The position numbers were made by a program, and so were the translations under genes. A model generated the notes under the pieces. That model did no database searches. It saw nothing but the letters and a program-made list of their open reading frames with translations, and was not told the DNA's origin. Below are positions 23,332 to 40,671 of a DNA stretch of 64,000 nucleotides, one piece after another. The stretch spans positions 461,253 through 525,252 of the forward strand of contig OZ242257.1 in NCBI GenBank assembly GCA_965207015.1, given 5' to 3'. Numbering within the stretch: position 1 is the stretch's first letter; the number at the start of each line of letters is the position of its first letter. This DNA comes from Nitrospirales bacterium (GTDB lineage: Bacteria > Nitrospirota > Nitrospiria > Nitrospirales > UBA8639).

Positions 23332-24681
23332 ATGAAATATCTGGAAGCCTATATCCGGTCGGTCCGGCCGCAGTTTGAAGACATGCTCGGGCAGGCGGTA
23401 GAGATCCCGTCGGTGAGTTCCGATCCTGGGCGAAAGAAGGATATTGACCGGATGGCTGCCGTCGCGGCGCAGTATCTGCGCGGCCTCGGCGCGCGGGCGC
23501 GGGTCGTCACGACCAAGGGCAATCCCGTGGTGTTGGGCGGCTGGCAGGCCGGGAAGTCGTCTCCCACGTTGACGATTTACAATCATCTGGACGTGCAACC
23601 CGCCCAGGAACCGGAGTGGAAACAGGACCCGTTCGTCTTTCGCAAACAGGGGGAGACCTATCGAGGCCGGGGGACCACCGATGATAAAGGCCCGGCGCTG
23701 GCCGCGCTCCTGGCGGCCCGGTATGCCGTGGAGCAGGGCGTTGCGTTGAACATCCGGTTTCTCTGGGAATTGGAGGAGGAAATCGGCAGCCCGAATTTTC
23801 AGGATGCCCTGGATCAACGGGCGGCGGTGCCGCGCCCGGATTCGGTCCTGGTGTCGGATACCATTTGGGTGTCGCGCCAACGCCCGGCGATTTCCACGGG
23901 CTTGCGTGGGATGCTGGCCGTCCGGCTGACCCTGCGCACGGGAACCACCGACGTGCATTCCGGGTTGACCGGCGGCGGGGCCAGAAACCCGTTGACCGAA
24001 CTCTGCGAGGCCGCGCAGTCGTGCGTGGATGCGCGAACCGGCCGCGTGACCATTCCCGGGTTCTACGATGAGGTGGTGCCGCCCACCAATGCTGAAATGA
24101 AGCAGTTTCTTTCCTCGGGCTTTCAGGTGGACCGGTTCAAAAAGGCCTACGGGTTCCGGTCGATCCGGACACAAAACCGTGCAGAGTTGATCCGACGGAT
24201 CTGGGCAGCCCCCACCTTCGAAGTACATGGGTTGGTGGGCGGGTACATGGGGCCCGGCGTGAAAACCGTGGTCCCGCCATCCGGGGAATTGAAGGTGAGC
24301 ATGCGGCTGGTCCCGAACCAGAAGCCTGCGACGATCCTCGCCCGGCTCAAGGCCCATCTCAAGAAACTGAATCCCGACATCCGGGTCGAAGCCGACGGGC
24401 AACTCGAACCGTTTAAGGGTGTGACGCGGGGCCCGTACGCCGACGCGCTCCGCCAAGCGATGCGGGCAGGCTTCGGAAAGGACCCTGCGCTGGTCCGGGA
24501 AGGGGGATCGATCGGCGCGATTTCTCTGATGGAGCGGGCGTGGCAGGTGCCTATTCTCTTCTGCGGGCTGAGCCTGCCCGAGCACGGCTACCATGCGCCG
24601 AATGAAAACTTCGATTGGGGCCAAGCCTCCGGCGGCATCCGTACCTTCGTCGACTACTTCACCCGCGTGGCGGCACTGTAG
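23332..24681 (+). CDS. M20 family dipeptidase/deacylase
   Basis: YNHLDVQPA...W..DPF, GRGTTDDKG, EEEIGS motifs, 449 aa. Confidence 0.85.
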   Translation: MKYLEAYIRSVRPQFEDMLGQAVEIPSVSSDPGRKKDIDRMAAVAAQYLRGLGARARVVTTKGNPVVLGGWQAGKSSPTLTIYNHLDVQPAQEPEWKQDPFVFRKQGETYRGRGTTDDKGPALAALLAARYAVEQGVALNIRFLWELEEEIGSPNFQDALDQRAAVPRPDSVLVSDTIWVSRQRPAISTGLRGMLAVRLTLRTGTTDVHSGLTGGGARNPLTELCEAAQSCVDARTGRVTIPGFYDEVVPPTNAEMKQFLSSGFQVDRFKKAYGFRSIRTQNRAELIRRIWAAPTFEVHGLVGGYMGPGVKTVVPPSGELKVSMRLVPNQKPATILARLKAHLKKLNPDIRVEADGQLEPFKGVTRGPYADALRQAMRAGFGKDPALVREGGSIGAISLMERAWQVPILFCGLSLPEHGYHAPNENFDWGQASGGIRTFVDYFTRVAAL

Positions 24682-24713
24682 GCGGGCGCGGCTGAAAATA
24701 ACTGTGAAAGCTC

Positions 24714-24741
24714 TTGACAAAGCATACAATGTACATACAGT
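24714..24741 (+). promoter_or_regulatory. candidate sigma70 promoter/operator of brnTA
   Basis: TTGACA-N16-TACAGT ends about 7 nt before the ATG, implying a near-leaderless transcript. An imperfect ACATAC..GTATGT palindrome overlaps it. Confidence 0.3.
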
Positions 24742-24747
24742 ATATGT

Positions 24748-25035
24748 ATGATTACATTTAGTTGGGATCAGGACAAAGCGAAGTCCAATCTCAGGAAGCA
24801 TGGGATTTCTTTCGAGGAAGCCCGATCTGTCTTCTACGACGAGTTCGCAAGACAATTCTATGATGAGAGTGCCGTTGTCGAAGACAGGTTCATTCTACTT
24901 GGCATGAGCAATCAAGCCCGTGTTCTGGTCGTCGTACATGGTGAGCGAGGGAAAGATGGTGAAGAACTTCGTATTATTTCAGCACGGAAGGCCACAAAGA
25001 AAGAACAGCAGCACTACCGAGGTGATGTGTCATGA
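24748..25035 (+). CDS. brnT: BrnT family toxin
   Basis: Colinear by eye with the BrnT pattern (F.WD..KA..N..KHG.SF.EA..VF ... RIISARKATKKE). Confidence 0.8.
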   Translation: MITFSWDQDKAKSNLRKHGISFEEARSVFYDEFARQFYDESAVVEDRFILLGMSNQARVLVVVHGERGKDGEELRIISARKATKKEQQHYRGDVS

Positions 25036-25250
25036 AAAGAGAGTATGATTTTTCCAAAATGAAATCTCGTAAGAACCCTTACGTGTCCAAGTTGAAAAAA
25101 CCGGTAACGATCCGTCTCAGCGAGGACGTGATTGCGTATTTCAAGGAAATGGCTGAGGCGTCGGGGATGCCCTATCAGAGTTTAATCAACCTGTATCTGC
25201 GCGATTGTGTACAGGGACGCCGGAAGGTCGATATCCAGTGGCAGCTTTGA
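25032..25250 (+). CDS. brnA: BrnA antitoxin (ribbon-helix-helix)
   Basis: 4-nt overlap with brnT. VTIRL...A...GMPYQSLIN motif. Confidence 0.75.
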   Translation: MKREYDFSKMKSRKNPYVSKLKKPVTIRLSEDVIAYFKEMAEASGMPYQSLINLYLRDCVQGRRKVDIQWQL

Positions 25251-25278
25251 CTGACCCTCGCCCCTAACCCTTCTCTTT

Positions 25279-25320
25279 CTGTCATCCTCGACATCTGTAA
25301 TCGAGGATCCAGCGTCTTTG
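25279..25320. repeat. REP-A copy
   Basis: GTCATCCTCGACATCTGTAATCGAGGATCCAGCGTCTTTG. Confidence 0.85.
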
Positions 25321-25351
25321 CCCTGTGTCTTTCTCTCTCGCCTCCGACCCT

Positions 25352-26731
25352 TCACGCTTTCTTCCGCACCAAAATCCTCAACGGCGTGCCCTCGAACCCG
25401 AACGTGGCCCGGAGTTGGTTTTCCAGGTACCGCAGGTAGGCGGGGGTCACCACCGCCGATTTGCCTGCAAACAGCGCGAACGTGGGCGGTTTGGTCGCGA
25501 CTTGGGTCATATAGAGCGATTTCGGCGGATTTCCTTTTTTCACGGTCAGGGGATTGTCGGTCAACGCCTTTTGGAGGAATTGATTGAGACGCCCGGTTGG
25601 TACCCGATACGAGAACGCGTCCATCACCCGGGTGACCGCGGCGAACACCTGATCGACGGTCTTGGGCGCCAGCGCCGATCCGAAGAGTACGGGCACGAAG
25701 GTGAAGAAAGGAAACTGTCGCTGCAACTCCAGAGTAAATTTCTTCTTGGCCTCGCGTTGATCCCGACGCAGGTCCCATTTATTGACGAGCATGACGCAAC
25801 CCCGTCCCTGCCGTTGGATGAGCCCCGCGATCTTGGTGTCCTGGTCCGTGACGCCCTCGACGCCATCAAGTAACAACACGCCGATATCCGACCGCCCCAA
25901 CGCCCTCATGGTCCTGGCCACGCTGTAGCCTTCGATGCCGGGCTCCACGCGGCCGCGACGCCGCAACCCCGCGGTATCCGTCAACAGAAACGGCCGGCCG
26001 TCGCGTTCCAGGTGCGTGTCGATGGGATCTCGCGTGGTGCCGGGCACGTCGCTGACGAGGGCGCGTTCCTCGCCCAGGATGGTGTTCACCAGCGTGGACT
26101 TGCCCACGTTGGGACGGCCGACCACGGCCACCCGGGTCGTGGCGGTTTCCGTCAGGTCCTCGTCATGCGCCGGCAGGAGATGCAGGAACGCCTCCAGCAG
26201 GTCATCCACCCCGTTGCCGTGCTCCGCCGAAACGGGGAACAGCATGTCCTTCCCGAGTTGATAAAAATCCGCCAACAGGGGTTCCGACTTCGGGGTATCG
26301 ATTTTATTGATGACCCAGAACGTGGGTTTGTCCACCCCGTGGAGCCCGTCCACGATCTCGCGGTCCACGGGCGTGAGCCCGGCGCGGCCGTCCATGATGA
26401 CGAGCAGAATATCCGCGGCGGCGAGCGCGGTCTGCGATTGCCGGCGGATGAGTCCGAGCATGCCGTCGTCGGCGGTGGGATCGAGCCCGCCAGTATCGAC
26501 GAGCTGGAAGCGGCGGCCCTGGTACGTGCACTCGGCGTAAATCCGGTCGCGCGTCACCCCCGGCCGGTCATCCACGATGGCGTTCCTGGTCCCCAGAATC
26601 CGGTTGAACAGGGTCGATTTCCCCACATTCGGCCGCCCGATCACCGCCACCAGCGGCACCCCCGACGGCCTGAGGCCCGGCAGAAACGCCTGCCGACTCG
26701 ATCGCGCTGTTGATTTCCGTTTCATGGCCAA
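25352..26731 (-). CDS. der: ribosome-associated GTPase Der (EngA)
   Basis: Two G domains (GRPNVGKST twice) plus a KH-like C-terminus. Confidence 0.95.
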   Translation of the reverse strand: MAMKRKSTARSSRQAFLPGLRPSGVPLVAVIGRPNVGKSTLFNRILGTRNAIVDDRPGVTRDRIYAECTYQGRRFQLVDTGGLDPTADDGMLGLIRRQSQTALAAADILLVIMDGRAGLTPVDREIVDGLHGVDKPTFWVINKIDTPKSEPLLADFYQLGKDMLFPVSAEHGNGVDDLLEAFLHLLPAHDEDLTETATTRVAVVGRPNVGKSTLVNTILGEERALVSDVPGTTRDPIDTHLERDGRPFLLTDTAGLRRRGRVEPGIEGYSVARTMRALGRSDIGVLLLDGVEGVTDQDTKIAGLIQRQGRGCVMLVNKWDLRRDQREAKKKFTLELQRQFPFFTFVPVLFGSALAPKTVDQVFAAVTRVMDAFSYRVPTGRLNQFLQKALTDNPLTVKKGNPPKSLYMTQVATKPPTFALFAGKSAVVTPAYLRYLENQLRATFGFEGTPLRILVRKKA

Positions 26732-26759: not shown

Positions 26760-26801
26760 CTGTCATCCTCGACATTCCTAATCGAGGATCCAGTGTCTTT
26801 G
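26760..26801. repeat. REP-A copy
   Basis: GTCATCCTCGACATTCCTAATCGAGGATCCAGTGTCTTTG. Confidence 0.85.
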
Positions 26802-26820
26802 TCTTTTCCTTTTGTATTCG

Positions 26821-26973
26821 TAGCCCCGCCATGTCATGGCGCATTCCTCCAAGTAGCATAGGACATTGCCGCTATAACGTGAAAAAGAATGTTCTCCGGC
26901 AGGCAGAGGAAAAGAAGAACCGAAAATCCAGTCTACGAGCGGGTAAGGGGAAAAGACAAGTCGTTACATGTGG
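26821..26973 (+). repeat. 153-bp direct repeat, copy 1 (flanks higBA)
   Basis: Aligns by eye with 27624-27776 at high identity over its whole length. It begins with the hairpin CGCCATGTCATGGCG. Confidence 0.85.
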
Positions 26974-27011
26974 TCATAAAGCGAGACAGGCCGACGCAGC
27001 CTGCATGCGGG

Positions 27012-27302
27012 CTATCCCAACATCGCAGCCGGTTGGACACCGACGGTCAGCCGGTGCTTCTCTCCGGCCAGCTTCCGAAAATCACACTCGACTTGGATGC
27101 CGTGCCAGAATTGCTCTGACTGGCCGAAGAAGGCGCCGAAGCGAATCGACATGGCAGGCGTGATCGACCGGCGGCCATGCACGATTTCATTGATCGCACG
27201 CGGGGCCACACCGATGGCGCGCGCCATGGCGTTCTGCGAAATCCCCATGGGCTTGAGGTATTCCTCAAGCAAAATCTCGCCGGGTGTGATGGGCGTGTCC
27301 AT
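27012..27302 (-). CDS. higA: HigA family antitoxin (XRE HTH)
   Basis: [29 protein letters not shown] signature. Confidence 0.85.
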
Positions 27303-27334
27303 ATCCGTATCCTATAACGTTATAGGGATATTTT

Positions 27335-27613
27335 TCAATGATAATCCGTGATGGCCACCTGTTCTGGCCCGGAATCCGTCCACCTGAAGACGATGCGCCA
27401 TTGGTCGTTGATGCGAATGGAATGAAAGCCCGAAAGCCTCCCGCTCAGAGCTTCAAGCCGGTTGCCGGGTGGCACGGCCAGGTCGCCAAGAGTACCGGCT
27501 TGATTCATCTGAATCAGTTTTCGTAACGCAACTCGTGATAGCACGGCAAACCGCCGGTTGCGTTCCGACCTGAACAGTTCTTCCGTATCCCTATCCGCAA
27601 AGGATTGGATCAT
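27335..27613 (-). CDS. higB: HigB / plasmid-maintenance killer toxin (RelE/ParE superfamily)
   Basis: [14 protein letters not shown]...[11 protein letters not shown]...[14 protein letters not shown]...ITDYH. The toxin gene lies upstream of the antitoxin, as in higBA. Confidence 0.85.
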
Positions 27614-27623
27614 GGCTAGCGCC

Positions 27624-27776
27624 TAGCCGCGCCATCTCATGGCGCTCTCCTCCAAGCAGCATTAGACGCTTTCGCTACAACGTGAAAAAGAATGTACTCC
27701 GGCAGGCAGAGGAAATAAAAAACCGAAAATCCAGTCTACGGGCGGGTAGAGGGGAAAGACAAGTCGTTACATGGGG
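27624..27776 (+). repeat. 153-bp direct repeat, copy 2 (left edge of island)
   Basis: See copy 1. Its first 23 nt (TAGCCGCGCCATCTCATGGCGCT) recur inverted at 38139-38161. Confidence 0.85.
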
Positions 27777-27962
27777 AGGGGCTTTATGGCGACGGTCTCT
27801 TGTCTGATAACGAATGAATGCTCGTTAAATGGGCGTTGCAAGTTTGTCGTCTCGCCATTGATGGGGGGGAGGGACACAGCCGACAGAATTCACTAAAAGC
27901 CAAAATTTTAGTTTTGAACTGTCTCCTTGACAAATAAGCTTGAGCTTTGAGGCAAAATTCCT

Positions 27963-28718
27963 TTACTCAAGCATCTCGTCATCTGTGAAAATCAGCAGCG
28001 TGAGAATCTCGTCGTTGCCTGGAATGTAACGCGACTCTTCATAAATTTCGTAGTTCTCTGCACCTCTGCGGTCAAACCAAATATCCGCACTAATCGGTAT
28101 ACGGTCGCTACATTCAGCCTCGTCCATAGCATAACGGGTTGGGTCGAGATCGTTGCGGGGAAACCACCGGTCTGGAATATAGTGCGATCGATAGAACCAT
28201 TTTCGGTTCCTTACGGTGTGACAGAGCAGGATAGCAGGCTCAGGTCCATACTCTATCAACCGAAGAGCGGTCGCAGTGATGCTAGTCTGGAATTCCGTCC
28301 GCAGGGTTTCCACGGCCTGAAAGGAGACTTTGCCAATTTCAAGCGCCATCGGTTCAAAGAGGTATTCAGGCATCAGGAGATCAGCAGCGTAACCATCAGC
28401 GATGCGTTCCGGGTCCGGAAAACTTTTCTTCGGGTTATTAATGTCATCTGATAAGCAGATCAAGGAGCGTCCTCGATCGTAATGCCAGTGACCCAACTCG
28501 TGTGCTGCCGAAAATCTCCGCCTAGCGGAAGTCGCTTGGCTATTGACCGTGATTACTGCGCGGTTGTTTGAACCAATAATACGGCCTTCGCAGCCGTTGA
28601 GCGGGCGATACTTAATGGTTGCTCCGACATGATAAGCGATTGCTTCAATGTCAATGTCCTTGGCAGCTGTGACACTAAGCTCTTTGAGGAGTTTTTCCGC
28701 TGGTGAAAGTTGATTCAC
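27963..28718 (-). CDS. ImmA/IrrE family (DUF955) zinc metallopeptidase
   Basis: HEXXH in RRFSAAHELGHWHYD and downstream ERIADGYAADLLMPEY. A C-terminal domain of about 110 aa of unknown role follows. Confidence 0.85.
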   Translation of the reverse strand: MNQLSPAEKLLKELSVTAAKDIDIEAIAYHVGATIKYRPLNGCEGRIIGSNNRAVITVNSQATSARRRFSAAHELGHWHYDRGRSLICLSDDINNPKKSFPDPERIADGYAADLLMPEYLFEPMALEIGKVSFQAVETLRTEFQTSITATALRLIEYGPEPAILLCHTVRNRKWFYRSHYIPDRWFPRNDLDPTRYAMDEAECSDRIPISADIWFDRRGAENYEIYEESRYIPGNDEILTLLIFTDDEMLE

Positions 28719-29152
28719 TTTACGTTGCCCTCGTCATCAATCATGCCAAGGTCAATGAGATCTTCAATAAAGCTGTCCATATCTGCTTCGGAGTCTTTCT
28801 CTTGACGCGCGGCAAGGGTTAACTTTTGTTTTAGTGTGTCGTTGTTCTGCGCGAAGTGCTGGATTAGCTGGTGTTTGCGACTCAACGGCCAGTACAATAC
28901 CTTATTCCCATGACCGGTTTGGTGCATCTCAGCTTCATAACCAGCACGCGCTGTTTCCATTTTCTGGCGGCCAAACTTTGCAATGGCATCAGCAATTAGC
29001 CCTCTCGTCCGCTTGGCAATCGCATCGGTGTCTTCGCCAGCTTCTTGCAGTTCGGCCATTAGTTCTTTATCACTCATGGCGTCTACATCGTCGGCCAATG
29101 CGTTGCAAAGTCGCTCCAACTTTTCAATTGCCTCATTCTGATTCTTATTCAT
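28715..29152 (-). CDS. acidic, predicted all-helical hypothetical protein (candidate partner/anti-sigma)
   Basis: 145-aa ORF. It overlaps the upstream gene by 8 nt and the downstream gene by 4 nt. No HTH or known motif is recognised. Confidence 0.6.
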   Translation of the reverse strand: MNKNQNEAIEKLERLCNALADDVDAMSDKELMAELQEAGEDTDAIAKRTRGLIADAIAKFGRQKMETARAGYEAEMHQTGHGNKVLYWPLSRKHQLIQHFAQNNDTLKQKLTLAARQEKDSEADMDSFIEDLIDLGMIDDEGNVK

Positions 29153-29726
29153 GGGTCAGGCCTTTCGGAAATTCGCGTAGAAGCTTGCGTTGCACGCGCT
29201 TTCGCGCTGCTGCGTACTCTTTCTCGCTCATGGACTCCATTTCACGGATTTCGTGCGGAGTCCAATCTTCCATAATGCCGATCACAATCGCCTGGGCCTT
29301 AGGGTCTTCGCTGAACATCGCCTCGATTCCGGCAAGTGCCTTGCCATAGTCGAGATGTCCTACGACAACCTCTTCCAGCGACATTGCCGGGTCAGGTGCG
29401 TTGACAATGGGATCGTCTCCATCACCCTCGCTAGAATTGCTGGGTGTTTCCCGCTTCCACTTCTCACGTGCATGGGAAGCAATGCTCTTCATCACGTTGC
29501 ACAAGAAAGTCGCTAGCTTCACGTCACGGGGGCAGTTACGGCCACCGTTCTCTTCAAGGGAACGCATCACAGCTTCCTGCAGGAGGTCGTTTGGTTCCAT
29601 GCCGGTGCCTGGTGCTAAGAAAGATGCCTCTTTCTGGAGGCGTGTCAGATCGGTCGGTTGCAAAGCCTCAAGCGCCGACCGCATCTCGGCAGGAGAGAGC
29701 ACTTCACGCTGTGGAATGGCTTCCAC
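29145..29726 (-). CDS. ECF sigma-70-like protein (regions 2 and 4 recognisable)
   Basis: DLLQEAVMRSLE...TFLCNVMKSIASHAREK resembles sigma region 2. TPHEIREMESMSEKEYAAARKRVQRKLLREF resembles the region 4 HTH. Confidence 0.5.
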   Translation of the reverse strand: MEAIPQREVLSPAEMRSALEALQPTDLTRLQKEASFLAPGTGMEPNDLLQEAVMRSLEENGGRNCPRDVKLATFLCNVMKSIASHAREKWKRETPSNSSEGDGDDPIVNAPDPAMSLEEVVVGHLDYGKALAGIEAMFSEDPKAQAIVIGIMEDWTPHEIREMESMSEKEYAAARKRVQRKLLREFPKGLTHE

Positions 29727-30036
29727 CGATTCAAAATCCTCCTTTCAACTCTTTAGGCCGAATTCAACGGGCCTTCCGGACAATTTTCTGAAATTTTTCT
29801 GGATTCTTGTGTCCGAGACGGCGGCTTTCGGCGGCCTAAGGTAATAGAGGCACAAGTCTCGGCCATTATTGAGTCCCAAATTGGGGAAGCGGCAGCGTAC
29901 CACCTGATAGGGATGAAGCGTAACACACATAAACGGCCATCTGGAAGTCCAAGAGTCGAGACATGCCTCTTTCTTTATCTTTTGAAAGCATATCGTTAAC
30001 CGGAAACCCTTTGGGGCCATTTTTAAGGAGGAAGCA

Positions 30037-30783
30037 ATGCCAGAAGTAACTGAAAGAAATGAGGTCGAAGATTTGGAGGAATGCGCGCGTGAGGATCGCA
30101 CACCGCGAGTCGGACATTGGTTTCGGGTGCGGATCAATGACAATAGATTCGTCGTCACCGATCCCGTTATTACGGGGCGACAGCTTCTCGACGAAGCTGG
30201 GAATCGGCCGGTCGAAGATTTTTTAATCTTTCTGAAACTGCGCAATGGGCTGCTGGAGGAGATCAGGCTTGACGAAACCGTTGATCTACGAAAGCTAGGC
30301 GTAGAGAGGTTCCTGGTGTTCAAGAGCGACCGGAGCTTCCGTTTCGAGTTGGATGGTCGGCGATTCGAATGGGGGGCGACCCTTATTACTGGGCGAACGC
30401 TGAAGAACCTTGCGGATGTGGACTTGGAAAGGTATGGGGTCTGGCGTGAAGTCCGTGGTGGCGAGGACCTCCCTATTGGTGACGATGAGTTTGTCGATCT
30501 CAGCGAGGAAGGGTTAGAGCGATTCTTCACGGCATCCCACCCTACCGCCACATTCGAGATCATCGTGAACGCACGTCCGCATACGGTAACAGGTCGGAAG
30601 GTGACCTTCGAACAGGTGGTAGAGTTGGCGTTTCCCAACTATCAACCAAATCCAAACATCGTGTTTTCGATGACCTATCGCCACGCCGCTTCTAAACCTC
30701 ATGCTGGCGAGCTTGGTGCTGGGGGTGTCGTCGAAGTGGACAATGGAACCGTTTTCAATGTCTCAAGAACTGATAAGTCGTAG
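30037..30783 (+). CDS. multiubiquitin-type protein with three tandem beta-grasp repeats
   Basis: AAGGAGG SD 7 nt upstream. Three internal repeats of about 70 aa (about nt 30118-30336, 30337-30540 and 30550-30780) share the F.[VFI].[IL][ND]...F/H.[VW]...ITGR..L pattern. Confidence 0.75.
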   Translation: MPEVTERNEVEDLEECAREDRTPRVGHWFRVRINDNRFVVTDPVITGRQLLDEAGNRPVEDFLIFLKLRNGLLEEIRLDETVDLRKLGVERFLVFKSDRSFRFELDGRRFEWGATLITGRTLKNLADVDLERYGVWREVRGGEDLPIGDDEFVDLSEEGLERFFTASHPTATFEIIVNARPHTVTGRKVTFEQVVELAFPNYQPNPNIVFSMTYRHAASKPHAGELGAGGVVEVDNGTVFNVSRTDKS

Positions 30784-31936
30784 TCCCGATTTGAAGCGTC
30801 TTCGTGATGAAGGATACTTCGTGCAGATACGAGGAGGTCTCCTCATCATGCGCGGAGTGCCCTACGTCAATGCGCTACGGCAGGTGCAGGAGGGAGTGCT
30901 GATCTCCAGCCTCACGCTCGCCGGCGACATCACCTCGCGACCGGACACGCATGTCGTCCACTTCGACGGCGACTACCCTTGTGGAGCAGATGGTACGCCT
31001 ATCCAGCAGATTATGAATCAAAGTGGAGACTTCGACCTTGGTAATGGCGTAACAGCAAAACACATGTTCTCAAGCAAGCCTAGTGAGGGATACCCCGACT
31101 ATTACCAAAAGATGACCACCTATGCCAATATCCTTTCAGGGCCTGCAACGACTTTGAAGCCCGGGGTCACCGCACGGATATTCCGCAATCCTGAAGACGA
31201 GGAAGATAGCATCTTCAGGTACGCAGAGACCGCATCCGATCGAGTGGGTATCGGCAGGCTAACTGAGCGGTTGGCAGAAGAAAAAATGGCTATCGTTGGC
31301 CTTGGCGGTACTGGGTCTTACGTGCTTGACCTCGTGGCCAAGACGCCGGTCCGAGAGATTCGACTTTTTGACGGCGATGAATTCTTGCAGCATAACGCCT
31401 TCCGTTCGCCGGGCGCTCCGTCCATTGAAGAACTGCGCGATGCACCGATGAAAGTCAATTACCTAAAGAATATTTATTCAAGAATGCACAGCAAAATCAT
31501 CGCCCATCCCGCTCCTATTGACGCAAGTAACGTCAACCTGCTGGACGGTATCACTTTCTCCTTCATATGCATGGACGGAAATGAAACCAAACGACTCGTC
31601 GTCGAAAAGCTTGAGGCTCTTAACGTGCCCTTCGTCGATACTGGTATGGGTCTCAACCTGAGTGACGACTCGTTGGGCGGTATTTTGAGGGTCACCGCGA
31701 GCACGCCAGCGAAGCGCGACCACATTCAGCGCCGCATATCTTTCGCTGTCGACGGGCAGGATGACATCTACGCGTCAAACATTCAGGTCGCCGATCTGAA
31801 CGCGCTGAATGCGGCAATGGCCGTCATCAAGTGGAAGAAAATTCGGGGTTTCTACCGAGATGATGATGGTGAGCATCATAGCACCTACACGATCGACGGC
31901 AACATGCTGCTGAATTGTGATTGCCGACAGCAATGA
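30758..31936 (+). CDS. E2-like N-terminal domain fused to a ThiF/MoeB/E1-type adenylyltransferase
   Basis: GLGGTGS nucleotide loop (31298-31318) and ThiF-like core. The N-terminal domain of about 190 aa has HVVHFDGDYPCG (Cys codon 30980-30982). The start is ambiguous (30743 or 30758), and both overlap the upstream gene. Confidence 0.8.
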   Translation: MSQELISRSPDLKRLRDEGYFVQIRGGLLIMRGVPYVNALRQVQEGVLISSLTLAGDITSRPDTHVVHFDGDYPCGADGTPIQQIMNQSGDFDLGNGVTAKHMFSSKPSEGYPDYYQKMTTYANILSGPATTLKPGVTARIFRNPEDEEDSIFRYAETASDRVGIGRLTERLAEEKMAIVGLGGTGSYVLDLVAKTPVREIRLFDGDEFLQHNAFRSPGAPSIEELRDAPMKVNYLKNIYSRMHSKIIAHPAPIDASNVNLLDGITFSFICMDGNETKRLVVEKLEALNVPFVDTGMGLNLSDDSLGGILRVTASTPAKRDHIQRRISFAVDGQDDIYASNIQVADLNALNAAMAVIKWKKIRGFYRDDDGEHHSTYTIDGNMLLNCDCRQQ

Positions 31937-32373
31937 TGCGATATTCTTATCTCAAACATCAGTTCGTACGGCACATTCCGCGTGACCTCGATCCAGGGGT
32001 GCTCTACATTTCAGTGGAATACGGTACAGCCGCACATAGTTGCTGTTGCGGGTGCGGTGAAGAAATCGTAACACCCTTTACACCAACCGACTGGGAAATG
32101 ACGTTCAATGGCGAGACGATTTCGTTATGGCCGTCGGTTGGCAACTGGAATCTAGCTTGTCGCTCCCACTACGTGATACAGCGCGGACAGGTGATCAAGG
32201 CCACGCCATGGAGCGATAGGCAAATCGTAGCGGGGCGTAGAAGGGACAAAGCGGCAAAGGCTCGCTACTTCGGCACAGGGGAGGTGCCTGCGGAAGCTGG
32301 ACGTGTGTTAACTCGCCCGGGAACTAGAGGCTTATGGTCTATGATCTTGCGCTGGATCTCCAAATCCAATTAA
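31933..32373 (+). CDS. Cys-rich DUF6527-like protein
   Basis: ATGA overlap with the E1 stop. AAHSCCCGCGEE (32041-32055) plus LACRSHY, a probable Zn site. The pattern matches my recollection of DUF6527 proteins next to ThiF/multiubiquitin genes. Confidence 0.6.
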   Translation: MMRYSYLKHQFVRHIPRDLDPGVLYISVEYGTAAHSCCCGCGEEIVTPFTPTDWEMTFNGETISLWPSVGNWNLACRSHYVIQRGQVIKATPWSDRQIVAGRRRDKAAKARYFGTGEVPAEAGRVLTRPGTRGLWSMILRWISKSN

Positions 32374-32393
32374 GGCACTATTTCCATGGTCAA

Positions 32394-34142
32394 TTAATCC
32401 CTTTTCTTTTCTCCTCTCGCTGGCTCTTCACTGTCCAGCACCAACGCCTCATGCAACATCGACTCAATCAATCGACCCCGCGCCTCGTCACCTGTGACAA
32501 GACTCGCCTCCAGCCGGTTACATAGGGTCATGAGTTCATCGACTTTGGCGACGATGCGGTGCTGTTCGGCGAGTGGGGGGAGATGAATAGAGAGTGGATA
32601 AATATCCTTATTGTTTATCTGAGGAACGGAAGTCCCAGAATTTAGCTTCCACAAATCCAGGTTGCTGAACCACAACTCCAAAAACGGAAGGAGATCGTTC
32701 ACAAATGGCTTCATAGCCATGATATTACTGTCGCAAACAATATTTACATGCAACCTGCGTTTTCGATTCGTTGCAATAGCCCCGCCCCTTTTTGGAAAAA
32801 CAATGCTTCCACTTTCGATCACGGCATCTTTCAGATCGTGACCAACAAATCTTGAGGATGTAACTATACCTTTATCGTTCTCAGTCAAGCTCAAATCCGA
32901 AACTTTCAAATATGGAAGGTCTCCAACAGCCTGCTCTTCACCGTGCTTAAGAGCTATACCGCTTCTCAGGTAGGCTATCTGGGAGATTGAGGTTTTGCTC
33001 CAATTTTGTGGCAACTGACGTGCAAATTTTTCATTCAAACCCCTGACAGTTGATTTTGCGCGGGGTATTTCCCCCGTCTTTACTAGCCGATCTTTCTCCG
33101 CCGCGATTCGCTTCAACAGCTCCGATGCTGGTTCGTCGTTCGGGTCTTGTGGGACGAGCTTGCCGCGTACGGCGAGGTTGAGGATGGTCTGGCGCAATGC
33201 TTTGATTTGGTCTGGGCGGGTGGTGAGCGGGGTGAGGTTGTTGAGAGCGAAGCGTGCGTGGTTCTGAAATGTCGCCGGGTCCGGGTCGGGTTCGTTGAGA
33301 CGGGCGAGGCTCGCTGTCGCCATCCGGTCGCGTGTCGCCTCTCGTTTCGCTCGCGTTTCCTCTAGTTGTTCGCAGAGGGCCATGAATTCGTCGACTTTGG
33401 CGACGATGCGGTGTTGTTCGGCGAGCGGAGGGAGGGGGATCAATGACTCATATAACTGATGGGCTTTAACATTTTGCACCGTCATCTTAGCTGTCTCGTC
33501 TTTCCACTTCTCGATGCGAGTATTGACGCCAAAGAGCAGCCATACGGAAAGCAAATCATTTGAGGCAGGAGTGATTCGAGCTATTCGTTGATTCAGGAGT
33601 GCTGTAGGTCCCTCCCATATGGCGCACTTGATTGAACCACTCAACCCGACAAGGATATCGCCACGATTTACCACGAAGGCTAGATCATACGGTCCCCTGA
33701 GAAAAACCGTTGGTGTGTTCGTTCCGATATCGCCTATCTTGATAAGTGGATACCCCGTGTTCGGGTCATTTGAGAAATTTCCTGAGGAAAAAGCAAAGCC
33801 TTGCACGATGATTGCGCTTGATCCGAGACGTATCCACTCCCAGTTGTGTGGAGTGTCGAAGGGGATTTCATCGAGTGCGATTTCAGGAAGAAGTTTTTCC
33901 TTTTTGATTTCCCCCGCCGCCATTTTCCGCTTTTTTTCTGCCGCAATCCGTTTCAACAACTCCGAGGCCGGTTCGTCGTTTGAGTCTTGTGAGACGAGCT
34001 TGCCGCGGACGGCGAGGTCGAGAATGAAACGGCGCAGGCGAGGGATGGCGTTGGGCGTGTCGGCGATGCGGTCGAAGTGTGTGAGGAGGTGTTCGACGGG
34101 AGCTGGATTCCCGCTTTCGCGGAAATGACAGTTGGGCTTCAC
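32394..34142 (-). CDS. hsdS: type I restriction-modification specificity subunit
   Basis: Two target-recognition halves separated by duplicated conserved helices (LPPLAEQHRIVAKVDEFMALCEQLE and LPPLAEQHRIVAKVDELMTLCNRLE). GTGA overlap with hsdM. Confidence 0.9.
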   Translation of the reverse strand: MKPNCHFRESGNPAPVEHLLTHFDRIADTPNAIPRLRRFILDLAVRGKLVSQDSNDEPASELLKRIAAEKKRKMAAGEIKKEKLLPEIALDEIPFDTPHNWEWIRLGSSAIIVQGFAFSSGNFSNDPNTGYPLIKIGDIGTNTPTVFLRGPYDLAFVVNRGDILVGLSGSIKCAIWEGPTALLNQRIARITPASNDLLSVWLLFGVNTRIEKWKDETAKMTVQNVKAHQLYESLIPLPPLAEQHRIVAKVDEFMALCEQLEETRAKREATRDRMATASLARLNEPDPDPATFQNHARFALNNLTPLTTRPDQIKALRQTILNLAVRGKLVPQDPNDEPASELLKRIAAEKDRLVKTGEIPRAKSTVRGLNEKFARQLPQNWSKTSISQIAYLRSGIALKHGEEQAVGDLPYLKVSDLSLTENDKGIVTSSRFVGHDLKDAVIESGSIVFPKRGGAIATNRKRRLHVNIVCDSNIMAMKPFVNDLLPFLELWFSNLDLWKLNSGTSVPQINNKDIYPLSIHLPPLAEQHRIVAKVDELMTLCNRLEASLVTGDEARGRLIESMLHEALVLDSEEPARGEKKRD

Positions 34143-35596
34143 CGGATCAACGCCTCCGCCAGGATCTTCTTCAATTGGTCGCGCAGGTCGGCGGTTTCGG
34201 CTTCGGTCTTGCTCAGCTTTGCCAGCAATTCCTGCGGGTCACCGTGGTTGTCTTCGGCGGTATGTGGGTTTTTGATGTCGAGGTTGTAGCCGCGTGCCTT
34301 GATCTCTTCAGCAGTCACCTTCCAGGCGCGGTCAGTTTCCTTGCGGCCTTTGCGGTCTGCGCCGCCCCACCAGTCGATGCAGGGTTGCAGGTGTTCCAGT
34401 TTGATGGGTTTGGTCATGGAATAGGCTTTCTGGCCTTCGGGGACGCGGTGTTCGTAGAACCAGATATCTTTGGTCGCTTCGCCTTTCTCGAAGAACAGCA
34501 GGTTGGTGCCGATGGAGGCGTAGGGCCTGAACACGGAGTTGGGCAGGCGGACGATGGTGTGCAAGTTGCACTCCTCCATGAGATGTTCCTTGAGCCGCGT
34601 CTTGACGCCTTCGCCGAACAGCGAGCCGTCTGGCAGGACGACCGCGGCGCGCCCTCCCGGCTTCAACAGCCGGACGATCAGGGCAAGGAACAGGTCTGCG
34701 GTCTCCCTGGTACGGAAGTGCTGGGGGAAGTTGGTCTCGATGCCGTCTTCTTCCTTGCCGCCAAAGGGCGGGTTGGTCAGCACAACGTCCACCCGGTCCT
34801 TCTTCTCCCAACCGATGTAGGGCTTTGCCAAGGTGTTGTCGTGGCGTACGAAGCCTGGGTCCTCGATGCCGTGCAACAGCATATTGGTGACGCATAGCAT
34901 GTGCGGCAGTTGTTTTTTCTCAACGGCGCGCAGTGCGGCTTGCATTTTCCGTTCGTCTGAGGGCCGCTTGACGTAGCGGTCGCGCATGTGGCGTATCGAA
35001 CAGGTCAGGAAGCCGCCCGTGCCGCAGGCGGGATCGAACAGAGTTTCACCGGGCTTGGGATCGATGCGGTCGGCCATGAAGGCGGTGACGGCGCGCGGCG
35101 TGTAGTATTCGCCCGCGTTTCCTGCGGATTGCAGGTCGTTGAGGATTTGTTCATAGATGTCGCCGAAGTGCTGGCGCTCGGTGAGGTTGTTGAAGTCGAT
35201 GCCGTTGATCTTGTTGACCACCTGGCGCATCAATTGGCCGGACTTCATGTAGTTATTGGCGTCCTCGAACACGTCGCGCACCACGCGGCCTCGGTCTTCC
35301 GCATGGCTGGTCGTCCGGAGATCCTTCAGGGCCGGGAACAGGTCGTTGTTGATGAAGGTGAGCAATGCTTCACCGGTGATGCCCTCGGGGTCGGCTGCCC
35401 AGGCGCGCCACCGGAAGCGCGCCGGGATCGGGGAGGCATAGTCCGACTTCATCAGTTCTAGTTCCTGATCCTGATCGTCGATGATTTTGAGGAAGAACAT
35501 CCAGCACAACTGGCTGATGCGCTGGGCGTCGCCGTCCACGCCGGAGTCCTGGCGCATGATATCCTGAACGGATTTGACGAGAGTGCGGACGGACAC
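34139..35596 (-). CDS. hsdM: type I R-M N6-adenine DNA methyltransferase subunit
   Basis: LTNPPFGGK (motif IV) and DPACGTGGFL (motif I). Confidence 0.95.
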   Translation of the reverse strand: MSVRTLVKSVQDIMRQDSGVDGDAQRISQLCWMFFLKIIDDQDQELELMKSDYASPIPARFRWRAWAADPEGITGEALLTFINNDLFPALKDLRTTSHAEDRGRVVRDVFEDANNYMKSGQLMRQVVNKINGIDFNNLTERQHFGDIYEQILNDLQSAGNAGEYYTPRAVTAFMADRIDPKPGETLFDPACGTGGFLTCSIRHMRDRYVKRPSDERKMQAALRAVEKKQLPHMLCVTNMLLHGIEDPGFVRHDNTLAKPYIGWEKKDRVDVVLTNPPFGGKEEDGIETNFPQHFRTRETADLFLALIVRLLKPGGRAAVVLPDGSLFGEGVKTRLKEHLMEECNLHTIVRLPNSVFRPYASIGTNLLFFEKGEATKDIWFYEHRVPEGQKAYSMTKPIKLEHLQPCIDWWGGADRKGRKETDRAWKVTAEEIKARGYNLDIKNPHTAEDNHGDPQELLAKLSKTEAETADLRDQLKKILAEALIR

Positions 35597-35599
35597 GGG

Positions 35600-38032
35600 C
35601 TACGCGGTCTCCTGATAGAGCGCGGCTTGCAGGTCGCGGACTGCGGCAACGAATTTGTCCTTGCCGCCGAAGGCGTTGATCAACTGCACCGGGGTGCCGA
35701 GTTCGGTCAACGGCGGGATGCGCAGTACGCTGACGTCATCCAAGTTGAACATTCCCTCGTCGGCGTATTTGACAAGCAGGGCGTCGAGCACGGCGCGGGC
35801 CTGTTCTCCGTATTTGTTGAACACATCGCGTTTCTTGACGTTCGCGGCGCGCTCGCGGCGGGTGAGCGGCTTGGCGTCAAAGGCGACATGGCAGATGAGA
35901 TCGAAGGGGTCGAGATCCCTGCCAAGCTCTTGGGCGATGGCGTCGAGAGGCAGATCCGCGTCCTCCAATTCTTCGACAATCGCCTGCTTGCGCTCTGCCG
36001 CTCCCCAGCGCCGGAGGAAATCGTCGAGGCTGGCGAAGCGCTTTTTCAGAGCCTTCTTGGTGAAGTCGCGCAAGGACTCGGTGACGAGCTTGCCGTACTC
36101 GTCCAGAAATTCCACCCGCTCACCTATGACTGTGGCCTCGATACCATCCACGTACACTTTGCGCGGACTATCACGAGGGTACGGCGGGGGAGGGTCATCG
36201 ATAATGGTTTCATCCTCCCCAGGTTCCGCCGGAATGGGATCGTCGTCATCGTCTTGAGGTGGCACGTCGTCAGGCGGCACGATGGAATCGCCTCCACCCG
36301 GTTCGTAAGTCTGTACCGGTTCACCGTCGAAATCCGGGTCGGCGAAGTGATTGGTCGCGCCGCGAAAATCCATCAGGGTGAAGTAAAGTTTGTGTGTGTC
36401 GTCGTGTACGCGGGTGCCACGTCCGAGTATCTGCTTGAACTCGGTCATGGATCCGACTTCACGGTCGAGCACGATCAGCCTGCACGTTTGCACATCGACA
36501 CCCGTGGACAGCAGCCGCGAGGTAGTGACCAGCACGGGGTATCTGGATTCCGGGTCGATGAAGTTGCCCAACTCCGCTTGGCCTTCGGGGTCGTCGCCGG
36601 TGATGCGCATCACGTAGCGATGGTTTTGGTCCACCAAGTCGGCGTTCTGGTTGACGAGCGTCTGCCGCATGCGCGTGGCGTGTTCTTGGTCGACGCAGAA
36701 GATGATTGTCTTGTTGAAGCGACCGCCGCTTTCCTTCAGGAATTCCGTCACCTTTTCGGCGACGACTTTGGTCCGGCCGTCCAGCACTAGGTTACGATCG
36801 AAGTCCTTGGTGTTGTAGATGCGGTCTTCGACTTCCTTGCCGCTCCGGTCGCGTTGGCCTTTCTCCGGCCGGTAGCCTGCTACGTCGCGGTCGATATGGA
36901 CCTTGATGACTTTGTAGGGGGCGAGGAAGCCGTCCCTGATTCCCTGTTTCAGGGAGTAGGAGTAGACCGGCTCGCCGAAGTAATGGATGTTGGACACGTA
37001 GCGAGTTTCCTTGGGCGTGGCGGTGAGACCGATCTGCGTGGCTGTGGTGAAATATTCCAGGATTTCCCGCCAAGCTGAGTCGTCGGCGGCACTGCCGCGA
37101 TGACACTCGTCGATCACGATGAGGTCGAAGAAGGTGCGTGAAAATTCGCGGAATATTTTTTGACGTTCTTCTGGTCCAGTGATCGCTTGGTACAGGCTGA
37201 GATAGACCTCGTACGCTTTATCGATACGCCCGACGGTGGCAGGCGAGTCCTCTGAGGAACCGTCGTCGCGTTCGATGGTTCCCGCTCTGGTCGAAAGTTT
37301 GGTCATAGCCGGACCAAAGGGCCGGAAGTCGTTGACCATGGTTTGGTCCACCAGCACGTTGCGGTCAGCCAGGAACAGGATTCGTTTTTTGCGCCCTGCC
37401 TTCCACAGTCGCCAGATGATCTGAAAGGCTGTGTAGGTTTTGCCGGTTCCCGTCGCCATGACAAGCAGAATGCGGTTGCGTCCTTTGGCGATGGCTTCGA
37501 TGGCGGCGTTGATGGCATTGACCTGATAGTAGCGCGGGGTTTTGCCGCTGCCATCGTCAAAATAATCCTGAAGGACGATTGCCTCTTCTTCGGAGGTTAG
37601 GCCTTTCCACGCGCAATAGCGTGCCCACAGGTCTTTTGGCGAGGGGAAGGAATCGTTATCGAGCGTGGTTTCTTTTTCAACGCCGGTGCCGCTCCGGTCA
37701 TGGAAGACGAACCCATCACCGTTGGAGGAGAAGACGAAGGGCACCTGCAACGTTTCGGCATAGTCGAAGGCCTGTTGCATGCCGTCGCCGATGGCATGAG
37801 TATTGTCTTTGGCTTCGATCACCGCAATGGGGACGTTGGGCTTGTAACAGAGGATGTAGTCGGCCCGCTTGGCCTTGCCCCTGCTGACCAACTTCCCGCG
37901 CACGATGATGCGGCCCTTGGTGAAACTGACCTCCTCGCGGATTTGCGTCATCTCGTCCCAGCCTGCCTTGCGAAGGGCGGGCGTGATGAACTTGGTGCAG
38001 ATGTCGCGCTCGCTCAGGTCTTTCTTATTCAT
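35600..38032 (-). CDS. hsdR: type I restriction endonuclease subunit (EcoAI/EcoEI-like, probably family IB)
   Basis: Nuclease N-terminus (ADYIL...IEAKD), MATGTGKTYTAFQ, VIDECHRGS (DEAH), and a C-terminal EcoEI-R-like tail, 810 aa. Confidence 0.95.
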   Translation of the reverse strand: MNKKDLSERDICTKFITPALRKAGWDEMTQIREEVSFTKGRIIVRGKLVSRGKAKRADYILCYKPNVPIAVIEAKDNTHAIGDGMQQAFDYAETLQVPFVFSSNGDGFVFHDRSGTGVEKETTLDNDSFPSPKDLWARYCAWKGLTSEEEAIVLQDYFDDGSGKTPRYYQVNAINAAIEAIAKGRNRILLVMATGTGKTYTAFQIIWRLWKAGRKKRILFLADRNVLVDQTMVNDFRPFGPAMTKLSTRAGTIERDDGSSEDSPATVGRIDKAYEVYLSLYQAITGPEERQKIFREFSRTFFDLIVIDECHRGSAADDSAWREILEYFTTATQIGLTATPKETRYVSNIHYFGEPVYSYSLKQGIRDGFLAPYKVIKVHIDRDVAGYRPEKGQRDRSGKEVEDRIYNTKDFDRNLVLDGRTKVVAEKVTEFLKESGGRFNKTIIFCVDQEHATRMRQTLVNQNADLVDQNHRYVMRITGDDPEGQAELGNFIDPESRYPVLVTTSRLLSTGVDVQTCRLIVLDREVGSMTEFKQILGRGTRVHDDTHKLYFTLMDFRGATNHFADPDFDGEPVQTYEPGGGDSIVPPDDVPPQDDDDDPIPAEPGEDETIIDDPPPPYPRDSPRKVYVDGIEATVIGERVEFLDEYGKLVTESLRDFTKKALKKRFASLDDFLRRWGAAERKQAIVEELEDADLPLDAIAQELGRDLDPFDLICHVAFDAKPLTRRERAANVKKRDVFNKYGEQARAVLDALLVKYADEGMFNLDDVSVLRIPPLTELGTPVQLINAFGGKDKFVAAVRDLQAALYQETA

Positions 38033-38138
38033 AAGCGCATGATTTTATATGTTGCGTTGAAGTTGCACAATGTGCGGTATGGAGCCGCCTGACTTTACAT
38101 CCTTACTCCGGCTTTTTCCTGGTGGAGGAGGAGTGAAG

Positions 38139-38161
38139 CGCCATGAGATGGCGCGGCTACG
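38139..38161 (-). repeat. inverted copy of the 23-nt head of the 153-bp repeat (right edge of island)
   Basis: The reverse complement, TAGCCGCGCCATCTCATGGCGCT, is identical to 27624-27646. Confidence 0.8.
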
Positions 38162-38177
38162 ATAGGAAAGGAAAAGG

Positions 38178-38215
38178 CAAAGACGCTGGATCCCTGATCA
38201 GATCGGGGATGACAG
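38178..38215. repeat. REP-A copy (inverted)
   Basis: CAAAGACGCTGGATCCCTGATCAGATCGGGGATGACAG. Confidence 0.85.
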
Positions 38216-38244
38216 AAGGGGAGAGGGTGGTTTTATTTAGTTCG

Positions 38245-38526: not shown

Positions 38527-38644
38527 TTGAGGTACTCCTTTGTCGGTTCCATTCTGAATATGAAAGAGGATGGCTTGAATCTCATGTTGTGTGCCTTTTG
38601 TCAACGCCAATGTCGTCATAACTACGAGATTCCTCGCTACGCTC

Positions 38645-38752
38645 GGAATGACAAATGACGCTGGATCCCCGATCAGGTCGGGGATGACAGACAAGAAACA
38701 AAGGCAAAGACAAAGACACTGGATTCCCGATTAAGGATGTCGGGAATGACAG
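38645..38752. repeat. two REP-A copies (inverted)
   Basis: CTGGATCCCCGATCAGGTCGGGGATGACAG and CTGGATTCCCGATTAAGGATGTCGGGAATGACAG. Confidence 0.85.
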
Positions 38753-40665: not shown

Positions 40666-40671
40666 GGCTCC

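Follow-up and report, generated by a model that had tools for sequence, protein, structure and literature searches.

The closest described counterparts of the locus considered here are the CapH+CapP regulators, in which CapP, an ImmA/IrrE-family enzyme composed of a peptidase, a linker, and a GAF region and equipped with a cysteine switch, responds to single-stranded DNA (ssDNA) from DNA damage and cuts CapH, a helix-turn-helix (HTH) repressor, at F82/R83 (...DDAFF/RGY..., the slash marking the cleaved bond), the R83A variant being uncleavable (10.1101/2022.04.27.489752; 10.64898/2026.05.16.725639). The gene of the substrate directly precedes capP, and the pair is encoded upstream of, and divergent from, a defense operon, i.e., an antiphage signaling system based on cyclic oligonucleotides (CBASS), a Bub operon, or a DUF2188/DUF3892 operon. 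In a 64,000-nt stretch of DNA from a Nitrospirales bacterium (GCA_965207015.1, contig OZ242257.1, forward strand, positions 461,253–525,252; hereinafter, the window), we analyzed three adjacent genes, referred to as the trio, that share these features: a CapP-type peptidase with the same regions and cysteine switch, a divergent Bub operon, a putative substrate gene immediately upstream of capP, and ssDNA from DNA damage as the expected signal. Unlike CapH+CapP, the trio has no HTH repressor; it encodes an unrelated 145-aa helical partner, the gene of an extracytoplasmic function (ECF)-type sigma factor is added, and the cis elements are two predicted bipartite promoters, not CapH operators. 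An activator would be released in place of a repressor being lost, and therefore the control would be positive rather than by derepression. On balance, we find it probable that the trio is a three-gene CapP-family controller in which an ECF-type sigma factor and its cognate inhibitor replace CapH; it looks like a portable ON switch for the Bub operon, probably triggered by DNA damage.

Other described systems resemble the trio in part. In DdrO/IrrE of Deinococcus and in ImmR/ImmA of ICEBs1 and phage phi105, a metallopeptidase of the ImmA/IrrE family cleaves the neighboring regulator upon DNA damage, as may also happen here, but what is cleaved there is an HTH repressor of the XRE type, and a sigma factor takes no part. 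The P1' residue of CapH is Arg, as at the cleavage site proposed below for the 145-aa protein (R116), and that of DdrO is reportedly Arg as well. Positive control of anti-phage systems by an ECF sigma factor and its anti-sigma factor is known for DdvS/DdvA, the regulators of a CBASS-CRISPR island of Myxococcus xanthus (PMC11506125); however, the anti-sigma factor DdvA is a transmembrane protein and acts with no CapP-type peptidase, whereas all three trio proteins appear soluble, as judged by reading their sequences, and the predicted trigger is intracellular ssDNA. In sigmaE/RseA (DegS, RseP, ClpXP) and sigmaV/RsiV, a co-transcribed anti-sigma factor holds the sigma factor, proteolysis frees it, and the sigma factor autoregulates, which is the scheme proposed for the trio. 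These systems, however, rely on site-1 and site-2 proteases of the membrane and on anti-sigma domains of class I, while in the trio the protease would be a cytoplasmic ImmA/IrrE peptidase, dedicated and operon-encoded, and the partner has no known anti-sigma domain. Finally, CapK+CapS and CapW/BrxR are portable ssDNA-sensing “controllers of adjacent pathways” that reside beside Bub, CBASS, and Bil operons, often adjoining restriction–modification systems (PMC13373217). The trio has the same neighbors and would share the sensing, but CapK+CapS phosphorylates a repressor and CapW/BrxR is a WYL-domain repressor, so that both act by derepression.

Against this background, the sensor-protease and the genomic role of the trio are known, while its output logic is new and two of its protein families are unannotated: known CapP regulators destroy a repressor to switch defense on, and here the sensor-protease appears to be rewired to release a dedicated sigma factor. 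Such a combination has been mentioned in one sentence, with no analysis, by Lau et al. (2022; bioRxiv 10.1101/2022.04.27.489752), according to whom capH and capP occur together with the gene of a sigma factor of the sigma70 family in 24 CBASS systems. Beyond this sentence, our literature search yielded no description of an ECF sigma factor with an ImmA/IrrE/DUF955 peptidase or of the promoter reported below. An earlier note on this DNA had not recognized the wiring as described; it has been mentioned, but our search yielded no characterization of it.

The trio comprises the following genes.

29145–29726, minus strand: sigma-like gene, GTG start, 193 aa, divergent ECF-type sigma factor
28715–29152, minus strand: middle gene, ATG start, 145 aa, putative anti-sigma factor and CapP substrate
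27963–28718, minus strand: capP, GTG start, 251 aa, CapP-type ImmA/IrrE Zn-metallopeptidase

As read in the sequence, the sigma gene overlaps the 145-aa gene by 8 nt (ATGAATAA), and the latter overlaps capP by 4 nt (GTGA). The sigma and 145-aa genes are translationally coupled, and the 145-aa gene, directly downstream of the sigma gene and overlapping it by 8 nt, has the position of a co-transcribed anti-sigma gene. The sigma gene diverges from the plus-strand Bub cassette, with a 310-bp gap between them (29727–30036). The earlier note had described the three overlapping minus-strand open reading frames, the first of them divergent from a ubiquitin-like (Ubl) cassette, and had recognized an ECF-like first protein with sigma regions 2 and 4 and an ImmA/IrrE (DUF955) peptidase with an HEXXH motif as the last one; the open reading frame list, the sequence, and the comparisons below agree with all of this, with the reservation that the sigma assignment becomes significant at the level of the family profile and, together with the predicted fold, carries a single sequence that is itself below threshold.

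The 251-aa peptidase matches the PADLOC capP profile over its full length (E = 1e-61, profile positions 8–241 of 242), Pfam Peptidase_M78 (PF06114; 1.6e-12), and, in the PDB, CapP (7t5t; 1.8e-7) and IrrE (4.5e-4). The profile coverage and the PDB matches point to the complete architecture of peptidase, linker, and C-terminal GAF-like domain. The Zn-metallopeptidase motif is H73-E74-x-x-H77 with E104 downstream, and the cysteine switch, a Cys with acidic residues at +3/+4, is present, although it is not universal among CapPs according to the CapP mechanism preprint (10.64898/2026.05.16.725639). The key residues correspond to those of E. coli CapP as follows.

Catalytic site and Zn ligands: H73, E74, H77, E104 in the window; H97, E98, H101, E128 in E. 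coli
Cysteine switch: C88, D91, D92 in the window; C114, D117, D118 in E. coli
ssDNA contacts: R66, K172/W173 in the window; R90, K195/W196 in E. coli

All of them (HExxH with Glu, the Cys and two Asp of the switch, R66, and K172/W173) are retained in every trio-type CapP aligned. The window CapP is 26–28% identical to the canonical CapPs from E. coli and Thauera and about 37 residues shorter (251 vs. 288 aa), and therefore represents a distinct subfamily. With these residues conserved, R66 and K172/W173 included, it may cleave its partner upon stimulation by ssDNA. The gene immediately before capP, which in canonical loci encodes the XRE-type HTH repressor CapH, encodes no HTH protein in the window, while the location upstream of, and usually divergent from, a defense operon is the same in the window and in the related loci with a readable cargo side, one variant being co-directional.

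In its AlphaFold2 (AF2) model, the 193-aa protein has two helical domains (12–93 and 126–185; predicted local distance difference test scores 80–92), a sigma2-like one (approximately 12–93) and a sigma4-like one (126–185), connected by an acidic disordered linker (95–125). This model and the full-length Foldseek alignments agree with the ECF (group 4) architecture, that is, sigma2 and sigma4 with no sigma3. Sigma70-family factors account for nearly all of the 50 PDB matches listed by Foldseek, the best ones including ECF SigH, SigL, SigE, and RpoE–NepR (probabilities up to 0.99). Homology to regions 2 and 4 is significant at the family level and below threshold for the window protein alone. 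The family profile A4, a 146-sequence alignment, was aligned by hhalign with E. coli sigmaE (identical to PDB 1or7_A) over 144 columns, collinearly from region 2 to region 4.2 (E = 5.9e-6, probability 85%), and 11 out of its 12 PDB matches are sigma factors, with SigH leading (1.4e-5). Sigma70_r2 (62 proteins), Sigma70_ECF (12), and Sigma70_r4_2 (9) are the top Pfam families among the 146 members. Taking together the family-level homology and the AF2 fold matches, we place the 193-aa protein among the ECF-type sigma factors, as a divergent one from a large unannotated family; as such, it would bind the RNA polymerase core and initiate transcription. An exhaustive profile search yielded 2,799 clusters at 50% identity with E ≤ 1e-3, including 1,567 with E ≤ 1e-10; the proteins in the 150 best clusters are mostly about 190 aa long, and RefSeq calls the relatives hypothetical proteins. 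For several of them (P0051–P0057), the called protein has 151 aa and begins at the M43 equivalent. In one related locus (L013, 7848–8000; such loci are cited by number), the 42 upstream sigma codons are intact in frame, but GCG stands in place of GTG, and a CTG precedes it by one codon; this lost start could reflect a non-canonical start codon or recent inactivation.

The gap between the trio and the Bub operon contains two copies of a bipartite motif, TGTCCG-N17-GGCCTA, arranged as follows.

29754–29782, minus strand: predicted promoter of the sigma/145-aa/capP operon; TGTCCG (−35, 29782–29777), 17 nt, GGCCTA (−10, 29759–29754)
29783–29809, no strand: AT-rich 27-nt spacer between the −35 hexamers, as read in the gap sequence, which may be an UP-element-like region
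29810–29838, plus strand: predicted promoter of the Bub operon; TGTCCG (29810–29815), 17 nt, GGCCTA (29833–29838)

The minus-strand unit ends 28 nt before the GTG of the sigma gene, with AAGGAGG in between, as would be expected of an autoregulated sigma operon, and the plus-strand unit lies 198 nt upstream of the ATG of BubA. These two copies, one per strand, are the only ones in the 64-kb window (0.04 expected). In 368 kb combining the window with the related loci, there are 32 exact matches, with about 0.3 expected, all in the intergenic region upstream of the sigma gene. The gap has no sigma70-consensus promoter, and the motif is absent from the canonical CapH/CapP loci that served as a negative control. 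A promoter pair precedes the sigma gene at nearly all of the complete trio loci that were examined, which belong to several phyla, with the partner copy facing the cargo, and the motif is conserved down to 30–38% protein identity, while the −10 hexamer differs between clades.

Window clade: GGCCTA
Sphingomonads (30–38% protein identity): AGCCTA
Plasmids of Cereibacter, Rhodoferax, and Polaromonas: CGCATA
Locus L029: GGCATA

Spacing between −35 and −10 is always 16–17 nt. The AT-rich stretch between the two −35 hexamers varies in sequence and in length, being 17–27 nt where measured (12 loci) and 11–14 nt by reading in plasmids L020–L022. The fixed spacing within a unit and the variable distance between units argue for two independent promoters rather than one operator.

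A natural control is provided by L029 (7001–11688), which encodes a 204-aa sigma factor (33% identical), a 197-aa partner, and a 311-aa HExxH peptidase, followed by a Bub operon (Multi_ubiq, Prok-E2_E, ThiF, BubE) that is co-directional with them. Both copies of the motif, here TGTCC(C/T)-N17-GGCATA, lie on the same strand, one before the sigma gene and the other in a gap of 85 bp that directly precedes Multi_ubiq. Since the copies follow the transcription units and their orientation, the motif is better read as a sigma-dependent promoter than as a palindromic operator; the latter was rejected on account of the variable distance between the units and the direct repeats in L029.

The same data bear on whether the 193-aa protein might be a sigma-fold transcription factor rather than a sigma subunit, acting as a repressor or an activator at an operator formed by the inverted TGTCCG...CGGACA repeats. 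In divergent loci the two units do form a large inverted repeat, and the single-sequence sigma scores are sub-threshold. However, the distance is fixed at 16–17 nt within a unit and not between units (17–27 nt where measured); each unit stands at a promoter distance from its gene, with 26–42 nt to the start codon in the loci with well-called sigma starts; in L029, the units are direct repeats, each before a transcription unit; and both the sigma2-like and the sigma4-like domains are present. We consider such a factor quite unlikely, and none of the alternatives discussed here explains the orientation-following bipartite motif as well as recognition by a dedicated sigma factor.

The 145-aa protein is acidic (isoelectric point 4.8, net charge −10; the segments at both termini are acidic) and all-helical in its AF2 model, and no HTH or anti-sigma family was matched by Pfam, NCBIfam, and PADLOC scans. 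This corresponds to its earlier description as acidic, helical, and devoid of an HTH, to which a weak LEM-type (helix-extension-helix, HeH) match can be added, seen in 34 out of 53 family members (best E = 7.9e-6).

29008–29089, minus strand: LEM-like motif MSDxELxAELxEaGED, residues 22–48 of the 145-aa protein (the Pfam match extends to residue 52)

No recognizable anti-sigma domain (class I ASD/ZAS, NepR, CnrY, and similar) is present in the protein. The single sequence has no relatives in the PDB, the family profile has no relevant match there, and Foldseek retrieved no meaningful neighbor of the model (best E = 1.9). The 145-aa family comprises 468 clusters at E ≤ 1e-3, and those listed are approximately 143–147 aa long and unannotated.

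Three segments stand out in the alignment of this family. The N-terminal SDxELxxE...G.D segment, that is, the part matching LEM, and the C-terminal amphipathic helix (approximately 122–134, DSFIEDLIDLGxI) are conserved in all clades; between them, A114 and R116 are invariant within L(T/G)(L/M)A(A/F)R, while A115 is replaced by F in some clades, the versions from Rhodoferax and Polaromonas having A-F-R at this site. The 197-aa partner from L029 is homologous to the 145-aa protein in its N-terminal part alone (E = 2.5e-4), and the accompanying 311-aa peptidase is 27% identical to the window CapP and matches no Pfam family. That this partner, which accompanies a different peptidase, shares only the N-terminal part suggests a division of the protein into a sigma-binding module at the N-terminus and a module for protease recognition at the C-terminus.

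Wherever all three genes are found, the 145-aa gene sits between the sigma gene and capP, i.e., immediately upstream of capP, in the position of capH. Nevertheless, no similarity of the protein to CapH was detected. Canonical CapH is a 107-aa HTH protein, and BLASTP and hidden Markov model comparisons with CapH from E. coli (encoded beside CapP WP_001290439.1) and Thauera were negative, as was the comparison of the family profile with the PDB. The two do show a local parallel, a small or aromatic residue, then Arg, then an amphipathic helix, but only the three-residue A-F/A-R pattern is common to CapH and the 145-aa family, and therefore we claim no homology. From the gene position and the conserved segments, we infer that the 145-aa protein is a sigma-binding anti-sigma factor and the substrate of CapP.

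A different role for this protein would be that of a DNA-binding repressor, analogous to CapH and using its HeH motif at the promoters, with CapP cleavage leading to derepression and with the sigma factor required but not sequestered. The LEM-type match in 34 of the 53 family members, the CapH position of the gene, and the AT-rich spacer between the two promoters are in line with this possibility. On the other hand, the LEM score of the window protein is 20.4 bits, below the cut-off of 24; HeH modules usually bind DNA with no sequence specificity; the protein is strongly acidic, the HeH region itself having a net charge of −9; the spacer varies in length and sequence; and, beyond the two promoter units, no conserved element is common to the clades. 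Overall, a repressor of this kind seems unlikely.

Sequestration of the sigma factor would lead to the following scheme, which is similar to that of the earlier note, where a sigma/anti-sigma-like pair in place of the XRE repressor was taken to mean positive control; the sigma factor, CapP, the non-HTH partner, and the promoter pair agree with it, and the binding and cleavage steps would complete it. At rest, the 145-aa helical protein would keep the 193-aa sigma factor inactive. DNA damage or phage infection would generate ssDNA, whose binding to CapP would open the cysteine-switch loop (C88, D91, D92) and activate the peptidase. The 145-aa protein would then be cut by CapP, the probable site being the invariant A-(A/F)/R116 (the last slash marking the bond), just before the C-terminal amphipathic helix. 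The released sigma factor would bring the RNA polymerase core to the two divergent TGTCCG-N17-GGCCTA promoters, the plus-strand one (29810–29838) driving bubA-bubBD-bubE and the minus-strand one (29754–29782) driving the sigma/145-aa/capP operon, which would provide positive feedback, while resynthesis of the inhibitor would reset the switch. Provided that this scheme is true, no promoter would be recognized without the sigma factor, and therefore the OFF state would be tight, in addition to the positive feedback.

Several observations weigh against this scheme. As regards the sigma factor, the 193-aa protein alone scores below every curated sigma threshold (TIGR02937: E = 0.0057, 16.3 bits vs. 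the cut-off of 42.9) and has no sigma match in a Pfam scan; PDB searches with the single sequence and with the first family profile retrieved nothing, sigma factors being reached only with the broader profile A4; and the Foldseek E-values of the model are weak (best 6.9e-3), because its two domains are oriented differently. As regards the partner, the AF2 model of the 145-aa protein has low global confidence (predicted template modeling score 0.33), sequence, profile, and structure searches detected neither a known anti-sigma domain nor similarity to CapH, and the weak LEM-like signal means that the protein may contact DNA. The likeness of the proposed cleavage site to that of CapH consists in just a three-residue pattern and is suggestive only, and the ssDNA trigger is extrapolated by analogy from E. 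coli CapP, with just 26–28% identity.

CapP could also act on the sigma factor itself, either processing a pro-sigma form or inactivating the factor by cleavage; the 145-aa protein would in that case be an adaptor or an inhibitor of CapP. Pro-sigma processing occurs for sporulation sigma factors, which sets a precedent, and the 151-aa gene calls starting at the M43 equivalent are compatible with a removable N-terminus. However, DLLQEA at positions 47–52 matches DVVQEAF at 48–54 of sigmaE; the first 42 residues thus align with the normal first helices of sigma2 and are not an extension, which weakens the pro-sigma idea. In addition, L013 retains these codons in frame upstream of the called start, and the invariant Arg motif and the capP-adjacent position favor the 145-aa protein as the substrate. 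We therefore regard direct action on the sigma factor as very unlikely and retain the anti-sigma scheme.

The trio occurs beside defense operons of different types, listed here by cargo.

Type II Bub: window, L012
Multi_ubiq, Prok-E2_E, and JAB-ThiF: L015, L018, L019
Bil (BilA, BilB, BilD): L016, L017
Type II CBASS: L013/L014 and plasmid pDE of Cereibacter sphaeroides 2.4.1
DUF2188 with DUF3892, or DUF2188 with two TIR proteins and a caspase: sphingomonads, Rhodoferax, Polaromonas

With the cargo varying between Bub I, Bub II, Bil, CBASS, DUF2188/DUF3892, and TIR/caspase, the trio is thus a portable controller, and not the switch specific to the Ubl cassette that the earlier note had envisaged. 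Likewise, co-inheritance of the two operons, which the note had expected, fails in the literal sense as the cargo is exchanged, yet this does not refute the switch. Exchange has left traces: a remnant of the bubA 5' end (a degenerate ribosome-binding site and N-terminal codons, intact in the window) is found in the leader of the CBASS operon in L013 (7554–7780) and in the leader of the short BubA gene in L012 (9747–9890). These remnants are scars of an exchange in which the cargo was replaced, with the regulator and promoter kept in place. Another conserved element, TAACCGGAA...GGCC.TTTTT, close to the ribosome-binding site of BubA, was rejected as a regulatory motif and attributed to shared ancestry, because the L012 and L013 leaders keep this remnant of the ancestral bubA 5' end.

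More generally, we lean slightly towards the view that a large ECF-like sigma family (about 2,800 clusters) is activated in a way so far undescribed for sigma factors, by a dedicated, operon-encoded, ssDNA-activated cytoplasmic CapP that destroys a new class of anti-sigma factors; with the two divergent TGTCCG-N17-GGCCTA promoters, the whole would form a self-contained, horizontally mobile positive-control cassette with defense cargo of many kinds swapped behind it. If so, cytoplasmic ImmA/IrrE proteolysis triggered by ssDNA would be an added way of ECF activation, the partner would have a new anti-sigma fold, and a function would be assigned to two sizeable families of RefSeq “hypothetical proteins,” including the pDE genes of C. 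sphaeroides 2.4.1. The predicted promoter might show how to induce Bub, Bil, and CBASS operons that have been silent in heterologous hosts, and the sigma factor and its promoter could be of use in synthetic biology as a compact, orthogonal, damage-inducible pair.

Two further copies of the module deserve mention. In the model organism C. sphaeroides 2.4.1, the trio on plasmid pDE (L020, 5004–6789) adjoins the CBASS operon, its sigma factor (WP_227590689.1) and partner (WP_017208431.1) being annotated in RefSeq as hypothetical proteins. In Sphingomonas echinoides ATCC 14820 (L002, 8700–11160), the 145-aa gene and capP are present, with no sigma gene or promoter pair detected; this copy is probably a decayed or rearranged module.

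The operon facing the trio in the window consists of three genes.

30037–30783, plus strand: BubA, multi-ubiquitin (Ubl) protein, 248 aa; Pfam Multi_ubiq, 2.1e-59, in three stretches
30701–31936, plus strand: BubBD, fusion of E2-like (DUF6791, 9e-60) and E1-like (ThiF, 6e-10) domains
31921–32373, plus strand: BubE, DUF6527 serine protease (Pfam DUF6527, 4.6e-24; function according to Ye et al.)

With bubA as the first gene, the BubA Ubl protein, the BubBD E2–E1 fusion, BubE (DUF6527), and no JAB gene, this is a Type II Bub operon (6E.2/DUF6527) in the sense of Ye et al. The longest-frame starts listed for bubBD and bubE are likely placed too far upstream. The alignment of BubBD with NCBIfam PRK06153.1-1 (1.8e-203) begins at residue 20; the true bubBD start is probably at 30758, so that bubA and bubBD would overlap by 26 nt, as they do in L012. 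For bubE, the ATG at 31933 is the probable start, sharing 4 nt with the stop of bubBD (ATGA).

The earlier note had offered a second role for the peptidase, the processing of multiubiquitin in place of the missing JAB. CapP would then mature or recycle BubA as a substitute for the JAB deubiquitinase, whose gene is indeed lacking in this cassette. However, Type II Bub operons normally have no JAB, and every Bub operon encodes BubE, the Ser-His protease by which BubA conjugates are removed (Ye et al.); thus, the “missing” JAB is the normal state and no substitute is needed. Moreover, the trio is also found beside JAB-containing Ubl operons (L015, L018) and beside cargo with no Ubl at all (DUF2188/DUF3892, TIR/caspase), and CapP is a characterized regulator peptidase. 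All this makes BubA processing hardly credible, and it was set aside in favor of regulation through the 145-aa protein. For comparison, CapH+CapP accompanies 31% of Bub operons (Ye et al.).

The trio and the Bub operon belong to a variable defense island of approximately 12 kb (26800–38700 of the window), whose other contents and flanks are as follows.

23332–26731: flank, der (25352–26731) and a gene of an M20 peptidase, with BrnT/BrnA on the same side
24748–25250, plus strand: BrnT/BrnA type II toxin–antitoxin system (1.9e-28, 4e-10)
27012–27613, minus strand: HigB/HigA-like type II toxin–antitoxin system inside the island (HigB-like_toxin, 1e-14; HTH_3)
32394–38032, minus strand: type I restriction–modification system hsdS/M/R inside the island
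39301–42723: flank, radical-SAM/SPASM and Usp/PCP_red genes

In the related genome of L012, the chromosomal flanks are the same and the contents are different: PIN/RHH, two type IIG restriction–modification genes, the trio with Bub II, DarT/Macro, and AbiJ. In many loci, the trio and its cargo have a restriction system next to them, which is type I in the window and type IIG or McrBC elsewhere (L013, 1–4364; L015, 1–5161; L017, 10960–13572; L012, 12392–17166; L018, 1181–4541), similar to the adjacency reported in the CapK/CapS paper (PMC13373217). Such neighbors would fit a second-line defense triggered by DNA breakage.

The predicted leader of the Bub operon contains a perfect 13-nt palindrome, CCCCAAATTGGGG (29874–29886), with 0.08 matches to its 11-nt core expected by chance in the window. 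Among the other loci, it is found in L016 and L017 (7800–7812), just upstream of the ribosome-binding site of BilA, and is absent elsewhere; it may form a hairpin in the RNA or serve as a second operator.

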